Source: Minisyncoccia bacterium
Lineage (GTDB): Bacteria; Patescibacteriota; Minisyncoccia; Phycocordibacterales; UBA9973
DNA length: 64,000 nucleotides
Direction of reading: 5' to 3'
NCBI GenBank assembly: GCA_038244685.1
Contig: JBBRTD010000002.1
Location: 2,924 to 66,923, forward strand
Positions 1 to 58,208 of this stretch are shown piece by piece. Numbering within the stretch: the first letter of the stretch is position 1; the number at the start of each line of letters is the position of its first letter. A program made the position numbers and the translations under genes. The notes beneath the pieces were generated by a model. That model saw nothing but the letters and a program-made list of their open reading frames with translations, did not search any database and was not told the DNA's origin.

Positions 1-3000
1 ATTTCTAGTTCGTTTATAGTTCAGGATACATCAAATGTTTCTTCTGTTCCTCCATATTTCAGTATGTATCTTGGCTGGCAAGCAGCTAGTGCTACCGGTT
101 TCTCTTCTTATAAATTAGAATATGCAACTTCTGTAAATAATAGTATATATGGTAGTTATACAACTATCTCTGATGCAAGCTTTCAATTAGTAAATTCAAA
201 TTATTATGTTTACAATAATTTGAACTCGAATCTTTTTTATAGATTTAGATTGGGGGTTGTTGGAACAAATGGAAATACTTCCGTCAGATCAAATTCATTT
301 ATTACCGTTAAACCAGATGGAGTTCAAAACTACAGTGAAGGAGGAGGAGGAAGTATTTCAACTGCTTCAAAAGTTGAGAACGTTGTTGTTACTCAAAATG
401 AAGATAAAACAGTAATAGTTGGTTATAAGGTTACTGATGTTTCTTTCTCTAAAAAAATTAATCCATCTTATGAGGCATATCTTTTCTATAATATTGGTAT
501 GACTTTGCCTAGTAATGCATTAGTTGGAGATACAATAACATTATTAGATGCTTCTAAATTAAAATCATCAGGTTATATTTTAATAAACAATGAAGTTATA
601 AGTTATTCTGGAAAAACAGGGAATACTTTAACAGGTATAATTCGCGGAACTTGGCCAACATTGAATTCAACAGGAAGAACATCCCGTATGAATGCAAATC
701 TATTCTCTGGAACAATTGTTTGGGTTTATGCAAATAGTACAACTCCTGTATCAATTACAAATAATACTATTGCGACTGGTCAAAATAATTCCATTTCTTG
801 GAATACATATAGTGAGACAGGTTTGGCTGGTGGTTCTTATACTAATACAGGAATAAAAGTTATCGTTCATGATAATCAAGATGCATCTTTTGGTCCACTC
901 TCAAGTCAAAACGATTACTCTGAGAATGGAATGCTAAGTGTTTTGGATTTAACAGCTCCTGTTGTTTCATTTAATCAGGCCACTTCTTCTGCTACAGAAA
1001 GTACAACTCCAGTTAACATACCTCTTTATTTAGCTAGAGCTTATCCATTTACAACAACTGTTTCTTATACTGTAACTGGTACTGCAACAAGTGGATCAGA
1101 TTTTACATTAGCAAATGGAATTGCCACAATATTAGCAGGAGAAACAACTACGAATATTTCATTTCCTATCATTAACGATATTTTCAAGGAAAGAGATGAG
1201 ACTGTTATCTTAACGCTCTCTGATCCAATAAATGGAAAAATTGGTGGAAATAGTTCTCATACCTATACTATTATTGATGATGATAATACTTCAACTGTAG
1301 AGTTTGATAGTGTCAGTTCTTCAGGATTAGAGAGTGTTGTTTCTGTGAATATTCCAATAAGTCTTTCTGAAATTTCTCTTGTTGATACAACAGTTAATTA
1401 TTCTATATCTGGAACAGCAACAAATGGTTCTGACTTTATTTTATCTGATGGTATTGCAACTATACTTGCTGGAGCATCAACAACAAGTATCGTTATACCT
1501 ATTACAAATGACACGCTAAAAGAAGATGATGAAACAATAATTATTACTTTATCTGATGTTACAAATAATATTCTTGGTTTAAATTCTGTCCATACTTATA
1601 CCATTCTTAATGATGATTTATTCCCTGTATTAAGTTTCAACAGTGGAACGAGTGAGGGATTGGAAAGTGTAAATTCTATAAATATTCCAGTTTCTATTCC
1701 CGCTGCATATTTAGAAGATGTTACATTTTCTTATTCAGTTACTGGTGGTACTGCTACAGGAGGTGGCGTTGACTATACATTAGAAAATGGGACTTTAACA
1801 ATACCAGCTGGCGAAATTTCAGCAAATATTAATTTAGGTATAATTGATGATGGAGTTTCAGAGCCAACTGAAACTATTATTATAAATTTATCTAACCTTA
1901 TAAATTCAACTCTTGGAGTAAATAGTGTTTACACTTATTCAATACTAGACGATGAAATATCTGGTAATGGTATTAAATCAACCAGCGCTCTTATCTCTTG
2001 GATGACATCAGATCTTTCTGACAGTTTAGTTGAATATGGAACAGTCTCTCCTGGAAATGAAGGAGCTTATAATTTGTCCAAATTTAATGCAGATAAAGTC
2101 TTAAAGCATAATATCTATTTAGGTAATTTAATTCCATCTACCACTTATTACATAAAAACTACTTCAACTGATTTAAATGGTGAGACTGTAGTTTCTACTT
2201 CTGGTTTTACAACTACACCTGGACCAATTATTGGTGGAGTAAATTCTGGTGATATTACAGACAGAGCCGTTACTATTACTTGGGTAACAAATATTCCCGC
2301 TAGCTCATATGTTAATTATTCTACCAACGCAAGTCTATCTACTCCATTTAGATTTGGAAGTGATGATCTAACAACAGAGCACTCTGTTAGTATTGCTAAC
2401 TTAAGTGCTCAGAGTCTTTATTATTATTCAGTTGATGGAATTGATGTTGATTCTAATGCTGGAGAAGATGCAAATGATGGTAATTATTATACTTTCACAA
2501 CAAGTGAAGACCAGGCTGCCCCTATAATTTCTGATATTTCAGTTCCAATAATAACATCAACTCAGGTTGCTGTAGTTTGGAGAACAAATGAATTATCTGA
2601 TGGTAAAATTATGTACGGAACAAGTGCTGGTAATTATGATCATGAGACATCACTTGTTTCTATACCAGAGACAAATCACTTAATTACAATTGGAGGATTA
2701 ACAGGAACTACTATTTACTACTATGTAATTGTTTCTGCTGATAGAAATGGAAATACCGCAACAACAGAAGAACAGACTCTAGAAACAACCGCAATAGAAA
2801 GAGTTATTGTTTCTTCTGGCGGTGGAGGTGGAAGTTCTGGTGTTCCTCAGAGTCTTTATGACGCACTTCTTGCTGAGAATGAAAACTTTAAAGCAAAATT
2901 AAAAGATTTCGATTTTACCATGCCAATTATTTCAAATATTAAAATAGATGAGATTACTGCTTTTAGTGCTACTGTTAGTTTTGATACAGATGAAGATGCT

Positions 3001-4242
3001 ATCTCGTTTATTGACTATGGTAAAGATAATAAGTATGGACTTATGGCTGCAGATAAAAGCTGGTCAAAGAGTCACACTATTAAACTTTATGGTTTAAGTT
3101 TGGGTACAGACTATTACTTGAAAATTAATGCTATGAATAGAGCAAATGATGTCAGTACTTCAGATGAACAAACTTTTAAGACTAAATTTTTAGCTGATGA
3201 TTTAGAGCAATTAAAGAATATAGATAATGTTGAACAATTCCAAGCAGCAATTGAGGCTGCCATTGAGTCAATTTTACCTTCTCTTGTTCCTCCGTTTATA
3301 GATAAACCAGCCATCTCTAATATTACAGAAAGTGGCGCAACTGTTACTTTCCGTACAAATATTAAATCATATCCAATTGTAAATTATACGACTGATGCTG
3401 ATTATGACAAAACAAAAGAAAATCCATATGATGGAGAAATATCTGATACATCAGAAAAAAATATTTCCCATACTCTTTCGCTCGTTGGTCTTAAGCCAAA
3501 TACTAAATATCATGTAATGGTTAAAGCATTTTCTATTCCTCAGGTTATTGGTAAATCCGAAGATTTTACCTTCACGACATCAGCATCAAAAATTCAAGGT
3601 TCTATTGTTGGCATAAAGAAGAATTCATTTACTGTTGTTTGGTCAACAGATGAGATTACTTCATCTATTGTTGAATATAAGAATCTTAAAACAGGAAGAT
3701 CTTCTCGTATTGTCGATGAGGCTAAAAATAAATCTCACTCAATCAAAGTTGAAAATCTTTCTCCCGGTACTTCATACGAAGTAAGTATTTCAGGTATTAA
3801 TGAAAAAGGAAATAAAGTTGAAAGTGGCAGTGCTATAAATGTTAAAACTTCAACTGATAATATTGCTCCTATTATTACAAATATAAAAGTTGATAGTGCT
3901 CTTGTCGTAGCTAGAAATGATAGAGTTCAAACTATTGTTTCTTGGCAAACAGATGAGCCTTCTACTTCAACTGTTTATTTCGGAGAAGGTACTGGTTCAT
4001 TAAATGAAAAACTTTCAAATAAGCAGGAAGATTTAGAGCTTACAAAATCTCATGTTGTTATTCTAACGGCATTAAAACCTGGAACCATTTATCGGTTTAC
4101 GGTTAGTTCAGCTGATGATGCAAATAATATTACAAAGCCACCAGTTCGTACAATCATCACTCCAAGGAAAACAGAATCAATTGTAGATGTTATCTTTAAG
4201 AACTTCGATGAGACATTTAAATTTATGAATAATGTTAAGTAA
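1..4242 (+). CDS. Giant secreted/surface protein with three Calx-beta repeats followed by multiple fibronectin-III-like domains. It is 5'-partial: the reading frame is open back to base 1 (ISSSFIVQDTSNVSS...), and the first Met is at 64.
   Basis: The ~100-aa unit ...VTGTATSGSDFTL.NGIATILAGE.TT.I.FPI.ND...EDDETVILTLSD... occurs three times (aa ~330-640), which is the Calx-beta signature. Downstream are repeated ~90-aa modules with a W..D....V.YG...........H...L.GL.P.T.Y.Y motif (FN3/PKD-like). Two Gly-rich linkers are present. Confidence 0.7.
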   Translation: MSSSFIVQDTSNVSSVPPYFSMYLGWQAASATGFSSYKLEYATSVNNSIYGSYTTISDASFQLVNSNYYVYNNLNSNLFYRFRLGVVGTNGNTSVRSNSFITVKPDGVQNYSEGGGGSISTASKVENVVVTQNEDKTVIVGYKVTDVSFSKKINPSYEAYLFYNIGMTLPSNALVGDTITLLDASKLKSSGYILINNEVISYSGKTGNTLTGIIRGTWPTLNSTGRTSRMNANLFSGTIVWVYANSTTPVSITNNTIATGQNNSISWNTYSETGLAGGSYTNTGIKVIVHDNQDASFGPLSSQNDYSENGMLSVLDLTAPVVSFNQATSSATESTTPVNIPLYLARAYPFTTTVSYTVTGTATSGSDFTLANGIATILAGETTTNISFPIINDIFKERDETVILTLSDPINGKIGGNSSHTYTIIDDDNTSTVEFDSVSSSGLESVVSVNIPISLSEISLVDTTVNYSISGTATNGSDFILSDGIATILAGASTTSIVIPITNDTLKEDDETIIITLSDVTNNILGLNSVHTYTILNDDLFPVLSFNSGTSEGLESVNSINIPVSIPAAYLEDVTFSYSVTGGTATGGGVDYTLENGTLTIPAGEISANINLGIIDDGVSEPTETIIINLSNLINSTLGVNSVYTYSILDDEISGNGIKSTSALISWMTSDLSDSLVEYGTVSPGNEGAYNLSKFNADKVLKHNIYLGNLIPSTTYYIKTTSTDLNGETVVSTSGFTTTPGPIIGGVNSGDITDRAVTITWVTNIPASSYVNYSTNASLSTPFRFGSDDLTTEHSVSIANLSAQSLYYYSVDGIDVDSNAGEDANDGNYYTFTTSEDQAAPIISDISVPIITSTQVAVVWRTNELSDGKIMYGTSAGNYDHETSLVSIPETNHLITIGGLTGTTIYYYVIVSADRNGNTATTEEQTLETTAIERVIVSSGGGGGSSGVPQSLYDALLAENENFKAKLKDFDFTMPIISNIKIDEITAFSATVSFDTDEDAISFIDYGKDNKYGLMAADKSWSKSHTIKLYGLSLGTDYYLKINAMNRANDVSTSDEQTFKTKFLADDLEQLKNIDNVEQFQAAIEAAIESILPSLVPPFIDKPAISNITESGATVTFRTNIKSYPIVNYTTDADYDKTKENPYDGEISDTSEKNISHTLSLVGLKPNTKYHVMVKAFSIPQVIGKSEDFTFTTSASKIQGSIVGIKKNSFTVVWSTDEITSSIVEYKNLKTGRSSRIVDEAKNKSHSIKVENLSPGTSYEVSISGINEKGNKVESGSAINVKTSTDNIAPIITNIKVDSALVVARNDRVQTIVSWQTDEPSTSTVYFGEGTGSLNEKLSNKQEDLELTKSHVVILTALKPGTIYRFTVSSADDANNITKPPVRTIITPRKTESIVDVIFKNFDETFKFMNNVK

Positions 4243-23216: not shown

Positions 23217-23288
23217 GGGCGATTAGTTTAGTGGTAGAACGAAAGTTTCCAAAACTTTTGGTGGGGGTTCGATTCCTCCATCGCCCGC
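23217..23288 (+). tRNA. tRNA-Trp (anticodon CCA)
   Basis: GGGCGATTAGTTTAGTGGTAGAACGAAAGTTTCCAAAACTTTTGGTGGGGGTTCGATTCCTCCATCGCCCG forms a cloverleaf with anticodon loop TTCCAAA. Confidence 0.85.
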
Positions 23289-23317
23289 ATTAGAAAAACA
23301 GCGTAAGCTGTTTTTCT

Positions 23318-23488
23318 GGGCGATAGCACATGAACTGCTTCATGTGTGCGGAGAAAGCGAAAGACTTTTCTGTGATTTGTTTACAAATCAAGAAAAGTAC
23401 CTGACGATGTAATCGGAGATAAGTGTACTCACGGTCCTCCATTATATGTCTGACCGAAAGTGTAATCACGTTTCCTCCATCGCCCGCA
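23318..23488 (+). pseudogene. tRNA-Trp-derived chimeric fragment: the exact first 9 nt (gggcgatag) and exact last 17 nt (ttcctccatcgcccgca) of tRNA-Trp, separated by ~145 nt of unrelated sequence
   Basis: Direct-repeat comparison with the tRNA-Trp gene at 23217-23288. The D, anticodon and T arms are missing. Confidence 0.6.
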
Positions 23489-40795: not shown

Positions 40796-40958
40796 TAGAT
40801 ATCAGGAGTATGGCGAGAGCACTGGCTCAACGACCCATCAGCAACCCTTAGAGATAAGAAGGTGCTAAATCCAGCCAGATGATACACAAGTATTATCATG
40901 GAAAGATAAGACTAGTCATCTGTATCTTTCCTCTTATTAGAGGAATTTTTTAATTTAA
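40796..40958 (+). promoter_or_regulatory. SAM-I (S-box) riboswitch with intrinsic terminator, in the leader of metK
   Basis: gATATCAGGAG...GGCGAGAGCACTGGCTCAACGACCCATCAGCAACC...AAGGTGCTAAATCCAGCC...AGATGATAc matches the S-box core blocks (ATCAAGAG / GG.GGAGGGACUGGCCCGAUGAA.CCC.GCAACC / GGUGC.AAUUCC.GCAG / AGAUGAG). The P1 helix is TATCA/TGATA. A terminator (ttcctct tatt agaggaa + tttttt) lies at 40928-40951, just before metK. Confidence 0.7.
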
Positions 40959-44337: not shown

Positions 44338-44866
44338 TCTTATTAAGCTCTCTGTTTCTGTGTTCTTCTTGTTGTTTTTTAAGTTCAATTACTTCTTCTA
44401 TCAGTTTGCCCATTGTATCTTCGATTCGAGTTAATATTTCTTCGTCTTTTTTATCTTCTTTTTCTTCTTCCTCATCATCTTCTTGAATATCTTCCACATC
44501 TTCCTGAATCTCATCAACATCTTTTTGAATATCTTCCACATCTTCCTGAATCTCATCAACATCTTTTTGAATTTCCTCGACATCTTCAGCAATCTCATCA
44601 ACATCACGAGCCACAGCATGGAGCCTTCTGGCTTGACGGTTTACAGACATTTGGATAAATATGGATAGATAAATTGCTTCGAGTGAGACTATTGTTGTAA
44701 CTACAAGTAATATCTCTTCAAATGGTATACCAAAAAAATACAATACAAATGATCCAATGAATAATAATGTATGGATAAGTAGAGATTCAGTCGAGCCGAT
44801 GGAGCGAGTTGCTCTTAGTGCTATTTTTTCAATTGAATCTAGAGATTTTTTCTTTAATTGCTTCAT
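44333..44866 (-). CDS. Small 2-TM membrane protein with a tandem 14-aa acidic repeat (DV[DE]EIQ[KE]DVEDIQ...) and a poly-E/K tail
   Basis: N-terminal hydrophobic helices, then ...DVDEIAEDVEEIQKDVDEIQEDVEDIQKDVDEIQEDVEDIQEDDEEEEKEDKKDEE. Confidence 0.55.
   Translation of the reverse strand: MKQLKKKSLDSIEKIALRATRSIGSTESLLIHTLLFIGSFVLYFFGIPFEEILLVVTTIVSLEAIYLSIFIQMSVNRQARRLHAVARDVDEIAEDVEEIQKDVDEIQEDVEDIQKDVDEIQEDVEDIQEDDEEEEKEDKKDEEILTRIEDTMGKLIEEVIELKKQQEEHRNRELNKK
44470..44610. repeat. Tandem 42-bp repeat (two full units at 44489-44530 and 44531-44572, plus degenerate flanking partial units) encoding the acidic 14-aa repeats
   Basis: atcttccacatcttcctgaatctcatcaacatctttttgaat occurs twice in a row. 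Confidence 0.8.
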
Positions 44867-54778: not shown

Positions 54779-54849
54779 GCAGGATTGGTTTAGTGGTAGA
54801 ATGCGACCTTCCCAAGGTTGAGGCACGAGTTCGATTCTCGTATCCCGCA
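54779..54849 (+). tRNA. tRNA-Gly (anticodon CCC)
   Basis: GCAGGATTGGTTTAGTGGTAGAATGCGACCTTCCCAAGGTTGAGGCACGAGTTCGATTCTCGTATCCCGCA forms a cloverleaf with anticodon loop TTCCCAA and an A3-C70 mismatch in the acceptor stem. Confidence 0.7.
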
Positions 54850-54927
54850 CATATATAAAAACTTTTGAAAAGTTATACTGAAGCCTATGCTCTTCAATCA
54901 GAGTAATCGCGGTCTCGTATTGCGCAC

Positions 54928-57350: not shown

Positions 57351-57396
57351 GTAATTTGGTTCTGAATTGTTAGATGAAAAGTTTTAAAAATATATT

Positions 57397-57469
57397 GCCT
57401 AGATAGCTCAGTTGGTAGAGCGCTCCCCTGAAGAGGGATAGGTCCCCAGTTCAAATCTGGGTCTAGGCA
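57397..57469 (+). tRNA. tRNA-Phe (anticodon GAA)
   Basis: GCCTAGATAGCTCAGTTGGTAGAGCGCTCCCCTGAAGAGGGATAGGTCCCCAGTTCAAATCTGGGTCTAGGCA with anticodon loop CTGAAGA. Confidence 0.85.
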
Positions 57470-57645
57470 CAAAAAAATAATGGAATCACCTTCAGGTAGA
57501 TAGCCAGTTCAAATCTCTAGTCTAGGCACAAAAAAATAATGGAATCACCTTCAGGTAGATAGCCAGTTCAAATCTCTAGTCTAGGCACAAAAAAATAATG
57601 GAATCACCTTCAGTTAGATAGCCAGTTCAAATCTCTAGTCTAGGC
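57470..57645 (+). repeat. Three tandem 58-59-bp units (caaaaaaataatggaatcaccttcaggtagatagccagttcaaatctctagtctaggca). Each ends in a degenerate copy of the tRNA-Phe T-arm/acceptor 3' end; a partial fourth unit follows.
   Basis: The units at 57470-57528, 57529-57587 and 57588-57645 are near-identical (unit 3 has one fewer A and g->t). ccagttcaaatctctagtctaggca versus the tRNA 3' end cccagttcaaatctgggtctaggca. Confidence 0.85.
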
Positions 57646-57676
57646 ACAAAAAGTAAAAATATCACCAAAAAATAAA

Positions 57677-57705
57677 ACACCTCGCTTAGGGCGAGGTGTT
57701 TTATT
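57677..57705. terminator. Bidirectional terminator hairpin (aaaacacctcgc ttag ggcgaggtgtttt)
   Basis: 11-bp stem with A/T-run flanks, abutting the Hsp20 gene stop (minus strand). Confidence 0.7.
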
Positions 57706-58208
57706 TAGATTGATTTAACTTTTAGTTTCGTTTCTCGATTCTTGTCTATCTTAGGAAGCTTGATTATTAATAATCCATGCTTTTCTATTGCTTCAGCTTC
57801 TTCAGGGTCAATTTCTTCTGGTAGGGTAATACTTCTCGAAAATGTTCCCCAGTAAAGCTCCTGCACGAAGTAATTTTCTTTATTAATTGATTGATTTTCC
57901 TCTCTTTTTCCACGAATGGAAATGGTATCTCTTGTGATATCGATAGATAAATTATCAGGATGAACACCTGCGATCATTGCTTGAACAATTATTTCGCTTT
58001 GTGTTTGGTATAAATCTATAGTAAGTTCTGCTTCTTGTTCCTCTTCCCACTTAGATTCTCTTTCACCATCCTCTGACTCTTCTATATCTCTACCTTGTAA
58101 ACTAACTTTTTTAACAGCAACAACAGAAGGATTCATTAATTCTTCTTCTTGATCTTCTAAACGAATGCTACCTGTTAGACGCTCTAAAAATGATCTCTTT
58201 TTTATCAT
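57705..58208 (-). CDS. Hsp20/alpha-crystallin-family small heat-shock protein
   Basis: Alpha-crystallin-domain pattern ...AGVHPDNLSIDITRDTISIRGKREE... and C-terminal I-x-I-like LKVKSI. Confidence 0.75.
   Translation of the reverse strand: MIKKRSFLERLTGSIRLEDQEEELMNPSVVAVKKVSLQGRDIEESEDGERESKWEEEQEAELTIDLYQTQSEIIVQAMIAGVHPDNLSIDITRDTISIRGKREENQSINKENYFVQELYWGTFSRSITLPEEIDPEEAEAIEKHGLLIIKLPKIDKNRETKLKVKSI

Follow-up and report, generated by a model that had tools for sequence, protein, structure and literature searches.

Tandem repeats of a tRNA-Phe gene fragment directly behind the intact gene in a Patescibacteria genome

The 64,000-nucleotide stretch of DNA analysed here (contig JBBRTD010000002.1; hereafter the window) is chromosomal DNA with a G+C content of ~32% from a bacterium of the Patescibacteria (candidate phyla radiation, CPR), and it carries an array of three head-to-tail 59-bp units directly behind an intact tRNA-Phe gene. 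The array probably represents a fragment of the tRNA-Phe gene that was tandemly amplified by recombination within the tRNA trailer. The module of which each unit is a copy is an old, lineage-specific element that occurs only directly 3' of tRNA-Phe in a minority of Paceibacteria.

The tRNA-Phe(GAA) gene (57397–57469, plus strand; 73 nt without an encoded CCA) was recognized by ARAGORN and by the Rfam tRNA model (68.8 bits), which place its end at 57469/70, and it is the source whose 3' part recurs in the units. Unit 1 (57470–57528, plus strand) consists of a trailer-like part (57470–57490), a conserved segment, AATCACCTTCAGGTAGATAG (57484–57503), and a degenerate tRNA 3' part (57504–57528). 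Unit 2 (57529–57587, plus strand) equals unit 1 in every base, and unit 3 (57588–57646, plus strand) carries one substitution, G to T at 57614, giving pairwise identities of 58–59/59. The 34-nt spacers have the same sequence in all three units and occur nowhere else in the window. Tandem Repeats Finder reported a single strong array at 57446–57652 (period 59, 3.5 copies, 97% matches, score 386). The arrangement described in the initial annotation, a tRNA-Phe gene followed by three tandem 59-bp units, is thus borne out, and the unit string given there is exactly that of units 1 and 2. The truncated fourth start that it placed after the array exists as sequence (CAAAAAGTAAAAATATCACC, 57647–57666, plus strand) and resembles the first 21 nt of each unit, but the diverged native trailer is the better reading, since tRNA-Phe in an array-free relative (L090) directly precedes a trailer of 20 nt that is similar to it.

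The 25-nt end of each unit, CCAGTTCAAATCTCTAGTCTAGGCA, corresponds to tRNA positions 50–73 with GGG replaced by CTAG. It occurs three times in the window, always in the array, against an expectation of zero, and none of 2,000 dinucleotide shuffles scored as well against the tRNA 3' part, which places the proposed similarity to the tRNA-Phe 3' end above chance. Ahead of these 25 nt the unit reads ...ATCACCTTCAGGTAGATAG, in which GATAG corresponds to tRNA positions 41–45; positions 46–49 (GTCC) are then missing. The stretch before GATAG is a diverged copy of the anticodon arm, for which counting by eye gave 11/19 identities in the direct orientation or 12/17 in the inverted one, all differences of the inverted reading being GC to AT, and the two readings of the origin of this motif cannot be separated. 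Within it, CTTCAG matches the reverse complement of positions 32–37 in the tRNA-Phe anticodon loop exactly, and TCTTCAG is the reverse complement of the loop. In a MAFFT alignment the native trailer after the last copy resembles the unit over its first 21 nt, and the unit is therefore ~21 nt of trailer joined to a 5'-truncated, degenerate tRNA-Phe (positions ~27–45 and 50–73, lacking 46–49). Two other derivations were rejected. For an internally deleted tRNA with the D loop fused to the T loop through CAGTT, the additional TAGATAG match was not significant by itself (155/2,000 shuffles); for a unit hairpin that would be a decayed terminator hairpin, MAFFT aligned the two hairpins, but the CACC..GGTG likeness was confined to the window and L002, so that it does not serve as a general explanation.

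The initial annotation had also raised the possibility that the array is transcribed with the tRNA and yields tRNA-like minihelix RNAs. A promoter-like site, TTGTTA-18-TATATT (57367–57396, plus strand; consensus scan only), lies directly 5' of tRNA-Phe and is the only one near the array, within which the same scan found no such site on either strand. The predicted terminator, a bidirectional intrinsic-terminator hairpin of 17 pairs with an A tract before it and a T tract after it (57670–57706), lies only after the array and would be common to the tRNA-Phe/array transcript and the convergent hsp20 gene (PF00011; 57705–58208, minus strand). With promoter-like sites confined to the region upstream of the tRNA and a terminator that comes only once the array has ended, co-transcription of the array with tRNA-Phe is likely. 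The formation of minihelices, in contrast, fails on the anatomy of the unit, which contains no 5' acceptor strand (GCCTAGA-like) and whose minimum free energy fold pairs only 3–5 bases with the 3' strand. Its T arm (GCCAG/TTCAAAT/CTCTA) pairs at 2 of 5 positions, leaving a broken T stem, and the best alternative register read from the sequence gives 3 of 4 pairs around a 9-nt loop. The window unit folds no better than shuffled sequence (z = 0.03), and ARAGORN and the Rfam tRNA model called 57397–57469 and no unit of the array. With no open reading frame (ORF) of at least 20 aa on the array strand, and no family returned for the units by gathering-threshold and E-value searches of Rfam, the array is indeed not explained by any gene. 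A protein-coding reading of the array was dismissed on the same lack of ORFs, and a CRISPR array was likewise rejected. A type III toxin-antitoxin array was set aside because the terminator is followed by the 3' end of the convergent hsp20 and by no same-strand toxin gene, and a minus-strand promoter formed by the T-loop complement TTGAAC because the scan found no such site in the array.

To place the array among its relatives, orthologous tRNA-Gly/tRNA-Arg/tRNA-Phe/hsp20 loci (denoted by L numbers) were gathered with Hsp20 as the anchor from metagenomes and 80 species-level genomes. The search of related genomes that had been proposed found the module only behind tRNA-Phe, in 9 of 67 related Paceibacteria species-level loci (L002, L003, L022, L025, L026, L036, L047, L052 and L057). 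Same-strand copies of the tRNA-Phe 3' end within 300 nt downstream of the gene were present in 17 of these 67 loci, compared with 0–1 in reverse-strand and upstream controls. Throughout ~490 kb of window and related loci the module junction motif appeared only downstream of tRNA-Phe, so the unit is not a widespread intergenic repeat unrelated to tRNA loci. The module pattern had no match in genome_contigs, and in metagenome_contigs it matched only the L003 species.

Copy number varies even among close relatives. Where Hsp20 is at least 93% identical, the window has three units, L002 two (72-bp period), the L003 group one and L090/L091 none; the single-copy group comprises L003, the near-identical contigs L004, L005, L006 and L087, and the closely related L088. 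In L090 and L091, which have no unit, CAAAGTATAACGTAATACAC and the terminator come straight after the tRNA, and the last copy of L002 is followed by a trailer, CAAAGTATAACGTAAGGCAC, that is nearly identical to theirs. At the P0004 locus the intergenic gap is 159 bp, too short for any unit, from which a copy number of zero is inferred. Among distant species, one copy with the same GATAG/CCAG junction is found in L022, L025, L047 and L052, and two copies in L026 (74-bp period), L036 and L057 (64-bp period). The acceptor part is decayed in L022, L025 and L036.

Several features of these copies point to amplification in place. Units are nearly identical within one genome, as in the pairs of L026 and L057, whereas spacers are barely alignable between genomes, which indicates recent, local expansion of the arrays in each lineage. 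In their acceptor and T-loop parts the copies track the resident tRNA, carrying either TCTAGGC with TTCAAAT or TCTCGGC with TTCGACC, and thereby indicate gene conversion. The middle copy of L002 joins a fragment-type 5' junction (GATAG/CCAG, without GTCC) to a tRNA-type 3' part (CTGGG), and is the hybrid predicted if the real 3' end and a fragment undergo unequal crossover or conversion. The trailer recurs in the window and in L002, as it would after tandem duplication. In the mechanism that we propose, copy number would change by unequal homologous recombination or replication slippage between the real tRNA 3' end and its copies, and gene conversion from the tRNA would keep the T-loop and acceptor part of the copies like the resident tRNA. 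If the tRNA end recombined with the last copy, the array would be lost cleanly, which matches the array-free close relatives. The anatomy, with no promoter of its own and a position before the terminator, suggests that the array would be transcribed as the 3' trailer of tRNA-Phe and cut off when the CCA-less tRNA is 3'-processed after A73. Because most relatives lack the array, it is not essential and is probably dispensable.

The copy number of three is as read in a short-read assembly, and metagenome assembly is prone to errors at short tandem repeats; a Logan contig that independently covers this sequence breaks off within unit 1. Nevertheless, it is highly improbable that one copy or none was inflated to three by misassembly, given that the same Logan contig confirms the tRNA-to-unit junction, unit 3 bears a distinguishing substitution, and independent assemblies of relatives show 1–2 module copies at the same place. 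The array clearly exemplifies concerted evolution and unstable copy number at the border of a tRNA gene, and it is also a warning for the assembly of metagenome-assembled genomes (MAGs) and for tRNA annotation.

The initial annotation had instead explained the array as the footprint of repeated integrase-mediated insertion and excision, each unit being the scar of a separate event at the tRNA-Phe attachment site (attB). In a weaker form, only the first fragment would owe its origin to a small mobile module whose insertion displaced the native 3' part. The fragment spans the anticodon-arm region to the tRNA 3' end, which is a typical extent of the identity blocks in the attachment sites of tRNA-targeting integrases. 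The L003 module resembles an insertion flanked by direct repeats, an identical 110-nt insert in L028 and L052 splits a native tRNA-Arg and leaves its 3' part downstream, and tRNA-Phe 3' fragments are present in viral contigs of other lineages. Partial tRNA genes that arise when genetic elements integrate have also been described (PMC9897764). Such fragments, left as attL/attR direct repeats, resemble the units here in being 5'-truncated 3' copies downstream of an intact gene on the same strand (PMC9897764). They differ in that the array has neither an element nor an integrase between its repeats, its 34-nt spacers are identical, its copies were amplified after divergence, and its module is kept across species rather than being an idiosyncratic scar.

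Identical spacers and the same inactivating changes in all three units indicate that the copies were amplified after the fragment had diverged. As these common changes are absent from the live tRNA, and as the array carries no cargo or ORF and no integrase lies within several kb, serial integrase events do not explain it. An integrase, which the initial annotation had suggested looking for near other copies, is absent among the neighbours of the array within several kb, which are housekeeping genes (LepA, DivIC, glutaredoxin, HSP20, PrsW and ValRS). Moreover, a 59-bp circle would be an implausible recombination substrate, clean excision removes a copy and leaves no scar, and the hybrid copy of L002 points to homologous exchange. 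Scans of an incomplete collection of viral contigs (viral_contigs) gave no match for the module junction or for the exact 3' end of this tRNA-Phe. The tRNA 3'-end copies reported in the units are therefore genuine, degenerate and not due to chance, but their proposed serial origin is unsupported, and integration in either form is an unlikely explanation. The tRNA-Phe 3' ends of other lineages were found in three viral contigs from GC-richer lineages. These IMG/VR contigs (L093, L094 and L095) carry a 30-nt tRNA-Phe 3' fragment, GTGTCCCCAGTTCAATCCTGGGTCTCGGCACCA, without a full tRNA, and judging from its sequence the fragment looks like an attachment site.

Some observations weigh against simple amplification of a neutral tRNA fragment. 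In L003 the terminator directly follows the copy and the spacer is not repeated, an arrangement less suggestive of a simple tandem duplication than of an insertion with direct repeats on either side; an insertion event may have been the origin of the first fragment. The module-bearing species are scattered on the weakly resolved Hsp20 tree, and this scatter requires many losses or horizontal spread. In addition, the 20-nt segment before the tRNA-derived part is 75–90% identical between species whose spacers are unalignable and whose upstream regions have diverged far more (18/20 identical between L003 and L057). This core is conserved to about the same degree as the tRNA, which one would not expect of a neutral relic. 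The conserved core comprises 20–24 nt, TTCAG-N3-AGATAG-CCAGTTCAAA. Because the segment differs from the tRNA, conversion from the tRNA cannot maintain it, and the segment is therefore constrained or has recently spread. The module is thus either under some constraint or propagating selfishly.

The conserved core, together with CTTCAG or the full 7-mer TCTTCAG in most species, raises the tentative alternative, to which we assign a low probability, that the array is a functional 3'-trailer RNA like RtT, its units being released from the tRNA-Phe precursor as small RNAs. The CUUCAG motif, which contains the Phe codon UUC, could then pair with positions 32–37 of the tRNA-Phe anticodon loop (CUGAAG), and copy number would set the dosage. 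The apparent position of the array within the tRNA transcription unit and an architecture matching that of tyrT/RtT are in keeping with this alternative. Against it, RNAalifold predicted no conserved pairs in 15 copies of the short module, and single units fold with z between 0 and -0.8. A 4–7-bp hairpin can be drawn by hand in each species, but its register relative to GATAG differs between species, the motif is not consistently in the loop, and we claim no covariation. The module is absent in most relatives, including two at 93–94% Hsp20 identity, its acceptor part is decayed in the three loci named above, and there is neither an Rfam RtT or T-box match nor a same-strand downstream gene to regulate. 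A T-box-like leader, suggested by the UUC in the conserved motif, was rejected because there was no T-box hit, no same-strand downstream gene and no consistent placement of the motif in a loop.

The closest known case is that of the Escherichia coli tyrT/tyrV operon. In the E. coli O157 strain examined here, the last 19 nt of tRNA-Tyr, AATCCTTCCCCCACCACCA, recur at a 178-bp period with 0–1 mismatch at the 3' end of each annotated RtT small RNA (sRNA); the repeat starts within tRNA-Tyr and is present in 2.1 copies. The tyrT repeat copy number differs between E. coli strains and is 3.14 in K-12. These tyrT/tyrV-distal 178-bp repeats are described as encoding the RtT sRNA (Bosl and Kersten 1991, cited in PMC4986893), and RtT RNAs are released from the transcripts of tyrT and other tRNA operons (PMC4986893). 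In both systems a tRNA gene is followed by head-to-tail repeats within the transcription unit, each ending in tRNA 3' terminal sequence; the array here lies directly 3' of the tRNA and before the terminator, and each of its units ends in tRNA 3' sequence. The units of the window differ in being 59 bp rather than 178 bp long and in having a longer tRNA part that runs from the anticodon-arm region to the 3' end and is mutated, with a broken T stem and no CCA. They also lack detectable structure, the Rfam RtT model gave no match at E ≤ 10 in 57380–57720, and the host belongs to the Patescibacteria. By this comparison, the array can be regarded as a variant of the tyrT/RtT architecture with shorter, degenerate units.

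The array is one of a set of elements, in part undescribed, that flank tRNA genes across the clade, and its wider value is as an entry point to them. In this reduced-genome clade, partial tRNA copies accompany one in four tRNA-Phe loci as well as many of those for tRNA-Gly and tRNA-Arg; one class is a well-supported structured RNA absent from Rfam, and in another an insert with its own replacement tRNA interrupts the native tRNA gene. In the window itself, a copy of the tRNA's own 3' end lies behind three of the six tRNAs. Patescibacteria are already known for unusual tRNA introns (PMC13011429). We consider it conceivable, though doubtful, that the 59-bp module, rather than a dead relic, is the smallest of a group of undescribed Patescibacteria modules targeting or copying tRNA genes, which would be passed between species and maintained through a conserved core; this core could serve as a recombination site or, by pairing of its CUUCAG with the tRNA-Phe anticodon loop, as an RNA motif. 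Other members could be the structured 115–170-nt element, the 110-nt insert that splits tRNA-Arg and the 5' tRNA-Phe fragments upstream of the gene, all described below. If such elements proved mobile or functional, they would be relevant to the maintenance, processing and exchange of tRNA genes in these organisms.

The longer element (covariance model R1) is represented in the window by a copy of ~170 nt (23318–23488, plus strand) that follows tRNA-Trp (23217–23288) and a hairpin (23294–23315); its beginning is the 5' acceptor strand of tRNA-Trp, GGGCGAT, and its end is an 18/19 copy of the tRNA-Trp 3' end, CGTTTCCTCCATCGCCCGC. In relatives it is found behind tRNA-Gly, tRNA-Arg and tRNA-Phe. 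Its start is the 5' acceptor strand of the upstream tRNA and its end is the T-loop, T-stem and acceptor 3' strand of that same tRNA; the conserved core between them is made up of a CUGC-loop hairpin, CGAAAG, CUUUUC...GAAAAG, GUAC and another hairpin. A covariance model built on this core alone found 33 copies in 82 loci, one of them in the window, all on the tRNA strand. All copies with a called upstream tRNA follow it, at 2–53 nt or, if second in a series, at 120–222 nt, and four copies have no upstream tRNA called by ARAGORN (L010, L016, L034 and L035). In the alignment, 93% of cells pair, compared with 36–53% in slid controls, and 17 of 24 pairs show double (compensatory) changes, a level reached in none of 500 shuffles; predicted folds range from -40 to -61 kcal/mol. 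The element had no match in Rfam 15, and its core had none in viral_contigs. That it is a structured RNA is well supported by this modelling and the strong covariation; it is undescribed and absent from Rfam.

The long element and the short module are alike in lying directly 3' of a tRNA on the same strand, in ending in a copy of the T-loop and acceptor 3' strand, in occurring singly or as two in series and in being patchy among species. Unlike the short module, the long element measures 115–170 nt, contains a copy of the 5' acceptor strand and has four helices with strong covariation. The short modules of L052 and L057 share a 15–17-nt stretch with the co-resident long element (0/1,000 shuffles), but a general derivation of the short module from the long element by deletion was not supported in the window, L003 and L036. 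A truncated remnant of the long element (54851–54927, plus strand) follows tRNA-Gly (54779–54850) in the window. Its end, GTAATCGCGGTCTCGTATTGCGCAC (54903–54927), matches the 3' end of the full elements in L026 and L054, including the decayed tRNA-Gly 3' end, and it is followed by the glutaredoxin promoter region, as in L003. A long element with tRNA-Phe-type ends occupies 3060–3190 (minus strand) of L010, where no tRNA-Phe was called; the C-terminal motif of the ORF upstream looks by eye like the C terminus of a DDE (rve-type) transposase. Downstream of the tRNA genes in L069 (tRNA-Phe) and in L047 and L038 (tRNA-Arg) are 5'-truncated tRNA copies with an intact anticodon arm, in which a long-element-like core (..GGTGTAC..CTGTAAG..) lies between the anticodon arm and the variable/T region.

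In L028 (~3460–3660) and L052 (~2900–3100), both on the minus strand, a native tRNA-Arg(CCT) is split at D-loop position 21/22 by the 110-nt insert, in which a complete tRNA-Arg(CCT) is enclosed by two linkers complementary to each other. Between the two loci the insert hardly differs (inner tRNA 73/73, one difference per linker), whereas the outer tRNA halves differ between them with compensatory changes and form perfect cloverleaves when joined. More complex nested versions are present in L037 and L038. At the opposite border of the tRNA-Phe gene, 5' fragments (positions 1–23) lie 50–160 nt upstream of the gene in L012, L020, L024, L036, L060, L073 and L078. A D-loop change, GCTGTTTTGGT, is common to them, and their acceptor strand agrees with that of the resident tRNA. 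L036, L073 and L078 carry these fragments as tandem repeats that include the promoter region, mirroring the 3' array at the other gene border.

The genes neighbouring the array encode MurJ-like, LepA, DivIC-like, glutaredoxin, HSP20, PrsW, ValRS and TsaD proteins, with Pfam marks. Homologues of the window Hsp20 are found in Candidatus Paceibacterota/Nomurabacteria MAGs, and exact-protein look-ups of the window Hsp20, the window PrsW and P0001 returned no record. A tandem repeat with a 42-bp period (21-bp sub-period, 3.2 copies, 91% matches) at 44472–44605 adjoins a TTC-rich tract and is probably a coding repeat. A SAM (S-adenosylmethionine) riboswitch of the S-box type was identified at 40796–40909 (plus strand) with 50.4 bits, above the Rfam gathering threshold.

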